Assembly (NCBI GenBank): GCA_028279595.1
Contig: JANQNK010000005.1
Location: 1-33,183, forward strand
Origin: Thermoplasmatota archaeon
Lineage (GTDB): Archaea > Thermoplasmatota > JAKEGO01
Direction: 5' to 3'
Length of the DNA: 33,183 nt
Shown in pieces: positions 1,136 to 28,718 of this stretch. Within the stretch, counting starts at the first letter, position 1; the number at the start of each line of letters is the position of its first letter. The notes below the pieces were generated by a model. It was not told where the DNA came from. It did no database searches and saw nothing but the letters and a program-made list of their open reading frames with translations. A program made the position numbers and the translations under genes.

Positions 1136-1888
1136 ATGGATAGGATACGATTTGAGATCATAGATGGTATCGCAATACTCAGTATGAGCAATGGCAAGAA
1201 CCCACAAGGATCCGGATTCGTCGAGGAAATGAATATTACACTAGACATGATAACGAAGGACCGCGAGATCAAGGGATTGGTACTGTCCAGCGATCATGAG
1301 CGATTCTTTTCGATAGGTTTGGACCTGCCCGACCTGATCGATCTATCGAAGGATGAATTCGCGTCCTTCCTCGACTCCTACAACAGGATGTGTCTGAACC
1401 TGTACACCATGTCGATCCCCACCGTTGCTGCCATCAACGGCCATGCAACCGCGGGTGGATGCATCATCGCCATGATGTGTGATCACAGGTTCATGGCCGA
1501 GGGACGATCCATAATGGGCCTGAACGAGGTCAAGCTCGGAGTCCCGGTACCCTACCATGCGGACAGGATACTCCATGATATGATCGGATCGAGGAATGCC
1601 ATGGAGATGATGGCAAGCGGGGACTTCTATTCAACGGACAGGTTGCTGGAGCTTGGCGTCATCGACAGGGTGGTTCCCCCTGAGGAACTGGTGGATCAGG
1701 CCACCGAACACGTCAGAAGTATCGGTGGGTCCCCTCTGGAGGCATTCTCGGCCATCAAGGCCAACCGGACCGACGCAGTGACCGCATGGATCGAGGAATC
1801 CCGGTCCAAGAAGGATGCTGAGTTCGTGGAGATGTGGTATTCCGAAAAGGCCAGAGCGGGCCTCAGGGCGGCGATGGAGAAATTCTGA
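1136..1888 (+). CDS. Enoyl-CoA hydratase/isomerase (crotonase) family protein
   Basis: FFSIGLDL, PTVAAINGHATAGGC, CDHR and GLNEVKLG motifs; GAGGTGA/GAGGA ribosome-binding site upstream. Confidence 0.9.
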   Translation: MDRIRFEIIDGIAILSMSNGKNPQGSGFVEEMNITLDMITKDREIKGLVLSSDHERFFSIGLDLPDLIDLSKDEFASFLDSYNRMCLNLYTMSIPTVAAINGHATAGGCIIAMMCDHRFMAEGRSIMGLNEVKLGVPVPYHADRILHDMIGSRNAMEMMASGDFYSTDRLLELGVIDRVVPPEELVDQATEHVRSIGGSPLEAFSAIKANRTDAVTAWIEESRSKKDAEFVEMWYSEKARAGLRAAMEKF

Positions 1889-5327: not shown

Positions 5328-5486
5328 GTTGTACGAGCCGGGACCAGAGGAATTCCTAGAATTGACGAGAAACCTTTCCTCTGGACCAGTTGATTTCGGC
5401 TATTCCACCGAAGTCAAAGAAATCAACGTATGGAAGAAGTCATCAGCGCCATCTCCCGATGAAGACTCCCGTTGACGGAAGGGAGA

Positions 5487-5562
5487 TGGTGCGGCTGCCG
5501 GGATTTGAACCCGAGCTAGAGGCTTGGGAAGCCCCGGTCCTGCCAGACTAGACTACAGCCGC
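5487..5562 (-). tRNA. tRNA-Gly(CCC), CCA encoded
   Basis: Cloverleaf: GCGGCUG/CAGCCGC acceptor stem, GGGGC-UUCCCAA-GCCUC anticodon arm, GUUCAAAUC T-loop, ends ACCA. Confidence 0.96.
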
Positions 5563-26095: not shown

Positions 26096-27343
26096 ATGAC
26101 CCACCCATTCCTAACGCTCGACGACCTAGACCTGGATGGGAGCAAGGTACTCGTAAGGGTGGATTTCAACTCTCCGATCGACCCGGAGAGGCGGGACCTG
26201 ATGGACGACACCAGGATAATCTCGCACATCGAGACACTGAGGGCACTCAAGGACGCAGCGGTGGTCGTCATGGCGCACCAGTCGCGCCCGGGAAAGAACG
26301 ATTTTACCACGCTCCAGCCGCACGCCCGGCGTCTCAGGCGGCACATGGACATGCCCGTCCATTTCGAGGACACGCTCTTCAGCAACAATGCGCTAAGACG
26401 GATAGATGAACTCGAATCCGGCGAGATCATGCTCCTCGAGAACGTCAGGTTCTATTCAGAGGAGATATCCCTGAAGGGCGACGCGGAAACCCTCTCTAAA
26501 TGCCGTTATATCAGGAAACTGGCTCCGCATTTCGACATATTCGTCAACGACGCATTCGCCGCGGCCCACAGGGCGCAGCCGAGCACTGTCGGCTTCATAC
26601 CCCACCTGCCCTCAGCGGCCGGAATGCTCATGGAGCGCGAGCTCACCGTCCTCGGGAAGGTGCTCTCTACTTCCCAGAAACCGTCCATCGCCCTCCTCGG
26701 AGGCGCTAAGGCGGACGATTCAATCAGGATCATGGAGAACATGCTCGGCAACGACATCGTCGACAAGGTGCTGACGACGGGCGTCGTCGGGAACATCATG
26801 CTCTTGGCCAAGGGCGTATCCCTTGGAAAACCATCCGAGACATTCATCAAGAAGCACATCTCGAAGTCCGACGAGATCCTCGAGAAGGGCAGATCGCTCC
26901 TCGAGAAGTACAAGGACAGGATCGAGGTGCCGACGGATGTCGCCCTGAACGTCGACGGGACAAGGCGGGGCCTGACGGTCGAGCGCCTGCCATCCGAGAA
27001 GCCGATCCACGACATCGGTCTCGACACCGTCGTCCATTACGCCAACGAGATAGAGGGTGCAGGGTCCGTCATAGTCAACGGCCCCTCCGGGGTCTTCGAA
27101 CTGCCGGAGTTCGCCTTCGGCACCGAGGAACTGTTCCTCGCCCTGTCACGCTCCAAGGGCTTCACGGTCGCGGGCGGCGGCGAGACGAGCGCCGTCCTGA
27201 CGAGGATGGGCCTCAAGGGCGAGGTCGACCACGTCAGCACGGGCGGAGGCGCATGCATCACGATGCTCGGCGGCAAGCAGCTTGAGGTCGACAAGGCGCT
27301 CCGGACCGCAAAGCAGTGGTACGAAGAAGGCCGATACCACTGA
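26096..27343 (+). CDS. pgk: Phosphoglycerate kinase
   Basis: VRVDFNSP, AHQSRP, LLENVRF, VNDAFAAAHRA, GGAK, NGP.GVFE and HVSTGGGA motifs. Confidence 0.97.
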   Translation: MTHPFLTLDDLDLDGSKVLVRVDFNSPIDPERRDLMDDTRIISHIETLRALKDAAVVVMAHQSRPGKNDFTTLQPHARRLRRHMDMPVHFEDTLFSNNALRRIDELESGEIMLLENVRFYSEEISLKGDAETLSKCRYIRKLAPHFDIFVNDAFAAAHRAQPSTVGFIPHLPSAAGMLMERELTVLGKVLSTSQKPSIALLGGAKADDSIRIMENMLGNDIVDKVLTTGVVGNIMLLAKGVSLGKPSETFIKKHISKSDEILEKGRSLLEKYKDRIEVPTDVALNVDGTRRGLTVERLPSEKPIHDIGLDTVVHYANEIEGAGSVIVNGPSGVFELPEFAFGTEELFLALSRSKGFTVAGGGETSAVLTRMGLKGEVDHVSTGGGACITMLGGKQLEVDKALRTAKQWYEEGRYH

Positions 27344-27375
27344 CCGAGAAGGCCGGGAACTACATATACCAGGAA

Positions 27376-27381
27376 TTTATA
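27376..27381 (+). promoter_or_regulatory. TATA box of tRNA-Thr
   Basis: TTTATA about 30 nt upstream of the tRNA 5' end. Confidence 0.55.
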
Positions 27382-27409
27382 GGGGAGCAGTGCCTCTGAC
27401 GGCGTATAT

Positions 27410-27483
27410 GCCACCGTAGCTCAGTTGGCTGGAGCGGCCGCCTCGTAAGCGGCAGGTCGAGGGTTCGAATCCCTCCGGTGGCT
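27410..27483 (+). tRNA. tRNA-Thr(CGU), CCA not encoded
   Basis: GCCACCG/CGGUGGC acceptor stem, GCUC/GAGC D-stem, GCCGC-CUCGUAA-GCGGC anticodon arm, GAGGG-UUCGAAU-CCCUC T-arm, discriminator U. Confidence 0.97.
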
Positions 27484-27696
27484 TCGCGGTTCTATGAGTT
27501 TGATAACATAGCGAAGCCACCATTGGCTCAGAACCCGCTCCCAAACAGGGTTGCTCGAGAATAAGAATTGAACATCTGACTGATTATTCTCGAGCGAGGG
27601 TGAGCCGAAGGCTCACCTGAACGAATCCCGATGACCCTTCGGGCCATCTGGCCCGTCGGTTAGAATAGGAGTACACTGAGGTCTTAATCCTGCGGG

Positions 27697-27712
27697 TCCC
27701 TCCGGTGGCTTC
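27697..27712 (+). repeat. 16-nt exact direct repeat of the tRNA-Thr 3' end (att-like)
   Basis: TCCCTCCGGTGGCTTC occurs at 27470-27485 and 27697-27712. Confidence 0.9.
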
Positions 27713-28718
27713 ACTCACGCTCTCTTATCAGGTAATTGATGGTGAGTTCCGCAATATCACCCGAGTATTCACCTGTACGACGGATGCTCTCGGCGATGTA
27801 ACTTTCAGCGATGGAGAACTCCCCCTCCATCTTCATGGCGTTCCTGTTGATCTTCTCGCAGAGCGGTCTGAGCTTCTTGAGCTTGTCCAGGACCATGTTC
27901 GCGGCCCTGACGTCCTTCTTCGACCATGCGTTGATCGACTCCGTGAAGAGGTCCATAGCGAAATCACTGGCCTCCTCGATGTTCTTCAGCGCGGCTGGTC
28001 TGATAGAACCCTTGATGAGAACGTCGGCATTCCCTGCGATCGCAACTGCGTGATCGCCGATCCTCTCCATGTATCGGCTGATCAGGAAGAAATAGATCGC
28101 ATCCACTGCCTTGATCCCCATGCGGCGAGCGAGCTGCGTATCCAACATGGCAATGTTCGATTGACGGGCGACCAGCCAGTGAAGGCGGTCCACGTCATCG
28201 TCCCTCTGGATGATCTCCGCGATGTCGGATGGGTCCCCTGACTTCAGTGCACCGATCCCGTCATTGTGCATGGCGCGTATGAGGATGAAAAGGCGCTTTA
28301 TCGTGTTCTCGAAGGGCATCTCCGTCGGGTCCAGGAGGTCCTTGATCCGTATCGACCGGTCGTCCTCCTCGATTATCTCTGGACCAATGGTAAGCTTAGT
28401 GAAATCGGTGACAGTATCCCGGAGCGAAGGTTCTATCGGTGGATGCCCTCTGACCTCTATCACAGAATATCCCTGAATGTATGATCCGAGTAGGATGCGA
28501 AGGAGATAGCTCGGATTGTCGATGATGGACAGGTCGATGGTCTTCGACGAGTGTGTCTTCTCCCCTTCCGTGTTCGACGTGACTATCAGGGATCCATCAG
28601 GATGAGGGATCATTCCGACTGGATCGTTCTTCTTGATCCCGTTACTTACAATCCACTCCTTCGGAAGCGTGACGACATACGATGAGCCCCCCGTCATCTG
28701 TACCTTGCGGATCTCCAT
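27711..28718 (-). CDS. AbrB-PhoU phosphate uptake regulator
   Basis: MEIRKVQMTGGSSYVVTLPKEW AbrB domain, DDDVDRL and ERIGDHA PhoU repeats; GGTGA RBS; divergent from pstS. Confidence 0.93.
   Translation of the reverse strand: MEIRKVQMTGGSSYVVTLPKEWIVSNGIKKNDPVGMIPHPDGSLIVTSNTEGEKTHSSKTIDLSIIDNPSYLLRILLGSYIQGYSVIEVRGHPPIEPSLRDTVTDFTKLTIGPEIIEEDDRSIRIKDLLDPTEMPFENTIKRLFILIRAMHNDGIGALKSGDPSDIAEIIQRDDDVDRLHWLVARQSNIAMLDTQLARRMGIKAVDAIYFFLISRYMERIGDHAVAIAGNADVLIKGSIRPAALKNIEEASDFAMDLFTESINAWSKKDVRAANMVLDKLKKLRPLCEKINRNAMKMEGEFSIAESYIAESIRRTGEYSGDIAELTINYLIRERE

Follow-up and report, generated by a model that had tools for sequence, protein, structure and literature searches.

In a Thermoplasmata archaeon, the DNA directly behind a tRNA-Thr(CGT) gene, which lies within the 33,183-nt stretch analysed here (the window), consists of two nested, gene-less folding modules carrying direct as well as mirror copies of the tRNA tail. 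tRNA genes are classic landing sites for mobile DNA and, to our knowledge, their known occupants bring an integrase of their own and are each bound to one tRNA. The modules of the window belong to a family found behind about half of the tRNA genes of this archaeon, which is apparently undescribed; full-text literature searches for fold-back tRNA-tail modules in archaea returned no description, and a paper on archaeal tRNA gene fragments covers ordinary integration remnants only (PMC9897764). We consider them probable non-autonomous, site-specific insertion modules of tRNA genes, perhaps acting as folded single strands; of three options put forward by an earlier sequence-only reading of the stretch, a minimal non-autonomous element integrating at tRNA 3' ends is the best supported.

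The host or target gene, tRNA-Thr(CGT), occupies 27410-27483 (ARAGORN; 68.4 bits against the Rfam tRNA model), does not encode CCA and is preceded, about 35 nt upstream, by a TATA-like TTTATA; it and all parts of the element lie on the plus strand. The upstream copy of the repeated tail, X0 (27466-27487; delimited by sequence, arm alignment and stem lengths), begins at C56 in the T loop, takes in the discriminator and ends with the trailer TCGC. The downstream direct copy, X1 (27697-27712), has the sequence TCCCTCCGGTGGCTTC and is identical to 27470-27485 by inspection and by blastn; the chance probability of a 16-mer recurring inside about 230 nt is near 1e-7. X0 is followed by an AT-rich spacer of 23 nt (27488-27510), which forms the loop between the tail and its inverted copy and holds a small inverted repeat of its own (CTATG...CATAG), and then by arm 1, or X' (27511-27521, GCGAAGCCACC), a perfect inverted copy of the end of the acceptor 3' strand plus trailer. 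X' can pair over 11 bp with 27477-27487 of X0 (GGTGGCTTCGC, the 5' strand of that stem) and over 9 bp with 27704-27712 of X1.

Beyond X' lies the type-A core (27531-27629; delimited by covariance model, fold, covariation and a census of loops), made up of hairpin 1 (27532-27536/27548-27552), hairpin 2 (27553-27564/27584-27595) and hairpin 3 (27598-27606/27610-27618; GAA triloop, apex CCGAAGG), and closed by CGAATCCC (27622-27629), where the direct copy of the tRNA tail begins. Hairpins 2 and 3 separate T55 from C56 in a partial copy of the tRNA and do not interrupt a functional gene. A short type-B module (27630-27696; delimited by blastn, by nesting elsewhere and by an alignment of eight copies) is nested in the T-stem part of this terminal tail copy, between C63 and a re-started T60, with duplication of TCCC. 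It comprises only hairpin Ba (27630-27637/27641-27648; TTC triloop and a conserved A.C mismatch), the linker T27649 and hairpin Bb (27650-27660 with 27688-27698), whose loop carries UUAGAAU...UGAGGUCUUAA.

The predicted fold of 27510-27715 reached -89.1 kcal/mol, against -63.8 +/- 4.5 kcal/mol in dinucleotide shuffles (z = -5.68), and the list of open reading frames (ORFs) holds none of 60 aa or more within 27486-27712. The motifs on which the sequence-only reading had built a single tRNA-shaped element of about 200 nt are all present at the positions it gave: GCCACC-attg-GCTCAG (27516-27531), GAGC (27592-27595), CGAGGGT (27595-27601, as at 27458-27464), the complementary segments GAAGCCACC (27513-27521) and GGTGGCTTC (27704-27712), the 12-bp inverted repeat which is our hairpin 2, and hairpins at 27599-27617, 27630-27648 (7 of 8 pairs, one A.C) and 27679-27691. 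Its remark that integrase and sizeable ORFs are missing also held, and the 16-nt repeat, inverted repeat and fold go far beyond chance; the single element, on the other hand, proved to be two nested modules.

In order to define the family, a covariance model (CM; R1) was built from 14 type-A cores, the window copy being left out. The window segment 27531-27629 matched this model over its full length (1-97) with 63.9 bits and an E value of 1.6e-14. The genome (G000) is a metagenome-assembled genome of 2.29 Mb in 21 contigs, 86% complete; the only other member of its family in our sample is a sister-genus genome (G001), 73% complete. The CM search of G000 yielded 16 strong type-A matches, all of them directly behind tRNA genes or in tRNA-linked arrays; across 150 genomes of the phylum type A was found only in G001 (seven copies), and the single same-order genome of that sample gave zero CM matches. 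An exact 31-nt pattern comprising hairpin 3 and the T-loop remnant matched only the sister genome among 185,579 species genomes, and no IMG/VR viral contig. With blastn the element had no match in 40 relatives; in its own genome, partial matches lay at two contig ends and downstream of further tRNA genes. The sequence-only reading had proposed a search for copies behind other tRNAs with ends that co-vary with the host, and the 16 type-A copies here and seven in the sister genus correspond to that expectation.

The tails show how widespread the arrangement is: for 16 of the 42 tRNAs called by ARAGORN, the last 14 nt recur exactly or almost exactly 84-290 nt downstream, for several of them twice, and about six more have truncated or contig-cut tail copies. 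A type-A module measures about 130 nt and consists of an AT-rich spacer (23 nt in the window, 19-27 nt in all other copies), the 3' third of the tRNA from the 5' strand of the T stem to the trailer, imperfectly copied in inverted orientation, the three abutting hairpins, and a direct tail from T55/C56 on, which starts at T-loop position C56 and stops 2-5 nt beyond the discriminator; the tail repeat is 14-22 nt long in the other copies. Type B, at about 85-150 nt, consists of a hairpin between tRNA end and complement with a CGTCAAT-containing loop, then Ba, Bb and a tail from T60; two further module types, C and D, occur in G000. Tandem and nested arrangements are found at tRNA loci, as are copies which the adjacent tRNA does not explain, namely orphan units ending in the tail of another tRNA.

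The cores are conserved in structure, their fold being protected by selection. RNAalifold on a MAFFT alignment missed hairpin 2, which is shifted by 1 nt in register between subfamilies; a hand-set structure with CM realignment was therefore used. In the 23 aligned type-A copies, 94.3% of the cells in 24 helix pairs are standard pairs, and double-sided changes occur in 18 of the 24; when partners were slid by 1-3 columns as a control, pairing fell to 33-47%. Every core, folded singly, gives the same three abutting hairpins. The type-B module of the window is 80% identical over 74 nt to C7:44636-44709 on contig 7 (blastn, E 3.4e-12), the same nesting point recurs on that contig in the type-A copy that follows an intron-bearing tRNA, and the right half of type B shows compensatory changes in 11 of 16 pairs among eight copies including that of the window. 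A search of 400 genomes of the phylum with the type-B stem pattern gave two matches, both by chance in coding DNA; a loose regular expression for the type-B hairpins was non-discriminating (1577 matches).

The outer parts of the modules follow the tRNA beside which they lie. What lies between the spacer and hairpin 1, with the 5' strand of that hairpin added, can be aligned to the local tRNA in reverse complement, starting near position 50 and reaching 2-10 trailer bases beyond the discriminator. The two are most complementary at positions 51-56, 59-62 and 71 to +3, less so at 57-58 and 63-70, and least at the inner acceptor positions 66-70. Hairpin 1 tracks the local T stem, reading CTC/GAG at CUC-type stems across two hairpin-1-loop subfamilies, and elsewhere CCCGG/CCGGG, or CCCC/GGGG at tRNAs with a G5 stem. 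Left arm and tail form an imperfect inverted repeat which can fold into a duplex copy of its tRNA-end target. In 7 of 15 copies the stem with the upstream tail and trailer exceeds in length the one with the downstream tail (11 versus 9 bp in the window, 11 versus 7 behind tRNA-Leu(TAA), at least 10 versus 4 behind tRNA-Arg(TCT) of G001), and in none is it clearly shorter. This would be expected of an excised unit in which a single tail is followed by its trailer, the spacer and the inverted copy, crossing-over having taken place inside the tail.

This arrangement speaks against a tRNA-like RNA, the first of the earlier options, in which a helix joining the exact copy of the 3' end to a stretch similar to the tRNA 5' end would be cut by RNase P and tRNase Z, given CCA and perhaps aminoacylated in the manner of transfer-messenger RNA (tmRNA). 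Such a helix can form; since the arm tracks the reverse complement of the local 3' third, however, the 5' segment is a complement of the 3' strand and not a copy of the tRNA 5' end, as is plain behind tRNA-Lys(CTT), where the arm of the second copy pairs 10 bp into the T stem. The presumed acceptor-like helix is shifted outward, with the discriminator and 2-5 trailer bases paired, and so does not mimic an acceptor stem or leave a free NCCA-type end, and the inner acceptor positions are precisely those with the least complementarity. The T-like stem likewise fails to form a T arm, no T-stem 5' strand being in register. The apparent D-stem matches are not features of the family: GCTCAG is not conserved in the other copies (family consensus GA-GAACCC), and GAGC is part of the 3' strand of hairpin 2 instead of that of a D stem. 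The CGAGGGT match, a single 7-mer, is roughly what chance would yield when 200 nt are compared with 74 nt. ARAGORN, as had been suggested, and the Rfam tRNA and tmRNA models called nothing in 27486-27712, only the real tRNA before it; Rfam searches (E <= 10 on 27300-27800, gathering thresholds on the whole window) returned only three tRNAs. We regard a tRNA-like product as extremely improbable. Among other candidates, templating from mature tRNA through an encoded CCA was rejected, CCA being present in only 2 of about 12 tail copies and explicable by the end of a neighbouring module; C/D-box or K-turn small RNAs (sRNAs), hammerheads, split or permuted tRNAs, EBS/IBS pairing of a group II intron and reverse transcription primed by tRNA were discarded for want of motifs conserved across copies; a reverse transcriptase was not found either.

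Cores at different tRNAs within the genome are more alike than the two tRNA-Arg(TCT) copies across the two genera. Two explanations offer themselves: insertion re-templates the arms from the target, or cores are exchanged by gene conversion among resident copies. The same likeness could be accommodated if the units were immobile by-products, formed where replication switches templates at the quasi-palindromic T arm of strongly transcribed tRNA genes and made uniform afterwards by gene conversion, and the direct-inverted-direct layout of the tRNA 3' third does resemble products of that kind. Template switching would not, however, account for a spacer and for hairpins 2 and 3, none of them tRNA-derived, at a fixed T-loop position in all copies, for the combining, stacking and nesting of discrete types A, B, C and D, or for the maintenance of the hairpins by compensatory change, and we hold it to be very unlikely.

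Integrase islands do exist in this genome, and they bear on the last of the earlier options, that the stretch is the scar of a larger island in tRNA-Thr of which the interior was lost and the attachment-site arms were left. A search with Pfam profiles revealed seven tyrosine recombinases in G000 (XerA and six that are not Xer-type), four of which adjoin tRNA genes. The island at tRNA-Pro(TGG) (C7:7343-21948; 14.5 kb) is bounded by a plain direct repeat of 17-18 nt starting at C56, the left boundary also of the type-A repeat, and its ends lack an inverted arm and any A, B or C module; 3' of its right repeat lie an older spacer and a TGGGCCC remnant of an inverted arm. We reasoned that islands and mini-modules which share a repeat boundary, the former without the fold-back arm, are separate entities. 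A scar would be consistent with the 16-nt direct repeat of the tRNA end that flanks the stretch, with the presence of real islands at other tRNAs, with a type-B module just inside the right end of an island at tRNA-Arg(TCG), and with the motif ATTTCTGCCATT which, in our reading, a mini-element behind tRNA-Asp has in common with the left ends of two islands. Independent deletions, on the other hand, would not yield identical arm junctions and a core of three covarying hairpins in 23 copies at no fewer than 14 tRNAs in two genera, and the Pro island with its older remnant shows islands and modules side by side as distinct things; a deletion scar is accordingly unlikely. Similar integrase-bearing insertions, with near-identical left ends, were seen behind tRNA-Leu(GAG) on C1 and tRNA-Leu(CAA) on C5.

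The tRNA-Arg(TCG) region (C14:112203-117640, L028) consists of about 5 kb of AT-rich DNA downstream of the tRNA, with a tyrosine integrase split into ORFs of 92 aa (SAM-like) and 220 aa (catalytic), a beta-helix protein and a tRNA-Ala(CGC). At its right end lies a type-A copy with the tail of some other tRNA, followed by a complete type-B unit ending in the Arg tail; a type-A copy carrying a foreign tail in this position implies that modules travel.

As to how they might insert, we propose conservative site-specific recombination within the repeated tail, at a T-loop sublocation, a site suggested by the shared C56 boundary of the Pro island repeat. The recombinase would be supplied in trans and would probably be a tyrosine recombinase, the only kind found among the mobility enzymes searched for: reverse transcriptase (PF00078), Y1/HUH transposase (RAYT, PF01797), IS110-type recombinase (PF02371) and Cas1 (PF01867) were not detected with Pfam profiles in G000 or G001 at 86% and 73% completeness. 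The excised unit would hold one tail copy, paired with its inverted copy, and the active form would be a folded single strand, DNA being likelier than RNA, as with the attC sites of integrons and attP(+) of CTX phage. In those systems imperfect inverted repeats fold into a target-like duplex, the recombinase acts in trans, and structure is conserved more than sequence. The modules resemble them in a fold that rebuilds the target duplex, in structure-based conservation, in arrays at one chromosomal site and in signatures that may be strand-specific; they differ in their target, the tRNA 3' end, in a flanking repeat of 16-22 nt rather than the 7 nt of integrons, and in that their single-stranded stage is deduced from GNA mini-hairpin loops and G.T asymmetry. 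Taken to its full extent, the comparison would make the modules the first archaeal counterpart of attC and CTX attP(+), that is, folded single-stranded DNA cassettes which mimic the tRNA 3' end, are inserted by a tyrosine recombinase of the host or of an island at the T loops of many tRNAs, have their arms re-templated for each target, and use the GNA mini-hairpin to stabilise or prime the strand; as a whole, this picture is a speculation to which we give limited credence.

Which strand folds, and whether as DNA or RNA, was approached through mismatches and loops. In helices of at least 6 bp, G.U pairs outnumber A.C pairs by 19 to 2, or by 11 to 2 when two atypically folded copies are omitted, and in the CM alignment, in which three rows are mis-registered, by 14 to 1; this wobble excess points to the tRNA-sense strand as the one that may fold. 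Of 23 copies, 18 have C(GNA)G at the tip of hairpin 3, and each of A, G, C and T occurs at N. GCGNAGC and CCGAAGG, the latter being the apex of the window copy, are 'mini-hairpin DNA' motifs, extraordinarily stable as DNA and much less so as RNA, and are known from single-strand initiation sites (G4; ssiA, which contains CCGAAGG) and from the single-stranded promoters of N4 (PMC13037366); their stability depends on the closing pair (PMC3201870). The triloops of type-B hairpin Ba are C(TNC)G in five of five, which is GNA on the opposite strand, and its mismatches are A.C and not G.U, so that types A and B seem to be of opposite polarity. Minimum free energies of the forward and reverse strands show only a weak asymmetry (-0.85 kcal/mol in the mean), the forward strand being the more stable in 15 of 23 copies.

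Folded RNA is the chief competitor. The modules might be functional noncoding RNAs produced by tRNA read-through, structured trailer-derived sRNAs like the tRNA-linked repeats (TLRs) rrA, rrB and rrF of E. coli, processed via the repeated 3' end, with the DNA repeats no more than a trace of how such RNAs came about. Strong covariation in three hairpins, the excess of G.U over A.C on the tRNA-sense strand, the z score of -5.7 and the lack of any T-run of five or more between tRNA-Thr and the element would all suit such RNAs, as would the TLR family of E. coli, whose units share 18-19 bp with a 3' end and three of which are processed sRNAs (PMC8144298). As RNA, however, the longest stem would take up the acceptor 3' strand and trailer of the tRNA and so compete with the tRNA fold; in most other copies runs of T3-T5 directly follow the tRNA; the apex loops are GNA triloops of the DNA type rather than RNA tetraloops (PMC13037366); type B, in the same unit, has the opposite strand signature; no Rfam family matches; and tandem, nested and orphan copies bearing another tRNA's tail would be left unexplained. 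We judge an RNA function of this kind rather doubtful.

Several observations weigh against the modules being inserted mobile DNA, whether or not as single strands. Neither an excised form nor an empty allele nor any polymorphism among strains was observed, and no recombinase is linked to the modules; none of the tyrosine type was detected in the 73%-complete sister genome. One tyrosine integrase normally serves one tRNA, whereas the modules sit at 14 or more different tRNAs, to each of which their arms would have to be re-matched. The circular DNA fold of the 227-nt unit is equal on both strands (-44.7 versus -44.6 kcal/mol; shuffles, -25.5 +/- 3.7 kcal/mol), and the counts behind the strand asymmetry are small and come from related copies. 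Covariation and G.U excess fit RNA equally well, and the element may be co-transcribed with tRNA-Thr, behind which no T-run of at least five intervenes. The single-stranded DNA idea is accordingly a lead, not a result.

The search for an empty allele, which the sequence-only reading had recommended, could be carried out through the gene that follows. This convergent gene (27711-28718, minus strand; ORF list) encodes an N-terminal MazE/AbrB-type domain (PF04014) fused to two PhoU domains (PF01895). The final two bases of X1 fall within its stop codon (27711-27713), and the sequence 3' of X1 (ACTCAC...) is unlike the upstream trailer; from the overlap we conclude that the tRNA-Thr end probably abutted the PhoU-domain gene before insertion. 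An exact-protein look-up did find one other assembly with an identical PhoU protein, the sole one, which also counts against mobility: it has the same 367-nt spacing with the element in place, and no empty allele came to light. A PGK-anchored metagenome scan for empty and filled alleles returned only relatives of 31-48% identity and was uninformative. The pgk-tRNA-Thr locus of G001 lacks type A, carries another repeat and has broken downstream synteny, offering no clean empty site; that of a further genome, G002, holds AT-rich DNA and hairpin units of an unrelated kind, and an integrase was not detected in the 1.5 kb covered.

Among known systems, the TLRs of E. coli are closest in architecture; closest in mechanism are tRNA-targeting integrative elements with their non-autonomous derivatives, and folded single-stranded sites. 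The TLRs (Egan & Landy 1978, Rudd 1999) comprise 22 units at ten loci, one to five per locus, ending in 18-19 bp of the 3' end of the upstream tRNA or rRNA; their function is mostly obscure, although the three studied act as Hfq/CsrA-binding sRNAs (PMC8144298). Like the modules, they are short, gene-less and directly behind tRNA (or rRNA) genes, and the window, with 16 nt exact against 18-19 bp, falls within the TLR definition as an architectural match only (PMC8144298); the modules differ in being archaeal and in having an extra inverted tail, a covarying three-hairpin core and nesting. With tyrosine-integrase elements of tRNA genes they share the flanking direct repeat of the tRNA 3' end, its C56 start, tandem accretion and an intact tRNA. 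They are, in contrast, gene-less, only about 130-230 bp long and one family at 14 or more tRNAs, and they have two features dispensable for double-stranded attP arms, namely a target copy that folds back and hairpins conserved in structure. Cis-mobilisable elements (CIMEs) are the non-autonomous derivatives of such integrative elements. REP, BIME and REPIN sequences, which depend on RAYT, and miniature inverted-repeat transposable elements are likewise short, palindromic, gene-less, multi-copy and intergenic, whereas the modules occur only behind tRNA genes and have ends that copy the target instead of fixed terminal repeats; no gene for RAYT or another Y1 transposase was detected in either genome.

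These findings point to an overlooked mode of DNA docking on tRNA genes, possibly via folded single strands, or else to a large archaeal class of tRNA-trailer RNAs; if either were true, it would bear on how integrases change target, on the evolution of archaeal tRNA loci and on annotation, as the units break assemblies and mimic tRNA fragments. Two contig ends, C1:238914-238992 and C15:45029-45153, both lie inside one type-A unit behind tRNA-Ser(CGA) and overlap identically; the assembly probably breaks at this repeat, with C1 and C15 adjacent.

Further loci illustrate how the modules combine. A complete type-B unit lies in the window itself behind tRNA-Gly(CCC) (tRNA, 5487-5562; unit, 5337-5486, minus strand): a hairpin with a CGTCAAC loop forms between the tRNA end with trailer (5492-5481) and the complement of these (5457-5446), followed by Ba (5426-5419/5397-5390), Bb (5385-5378/5350-5344, its loop carrying TTCTCGTCAATTC) and a truncated tail copy, TCCCGGC (5343-5337). 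At C7:44983-45100 (minus strand) an intron-bearing tRNA, called only in part by ARAGORN, is followed by four stacked units, among them a type A, a second type A in which a short type B is nested, and another unit resembling type B. In G001 another repeat, GTACTTTTTCGAA...GATGTGAGAAAAAGCACG... (L054, about 1330-1500, minus strand; L036), is shared by two loci, where it comes after tRNA-Thr(CGT) and after the type-A unit of tRNA-Arg(TCT); it is a further module type that is absent from the Thr locus of G000. Copies of a tRNA's own 5' end (14-28 nt) precede four tRNAs of G000, namely Lys-CTT (C1:145975-146138), Arg-CCT (C5:36210-36346), Asp-GTC (C4:143705-143817) and Leu-TAG (C14:86977-87203); at the first two a copy of the promoter region is also present upstream, with a small hairpin module between, and these 5'-side copies look like a mirror-image set of modules.

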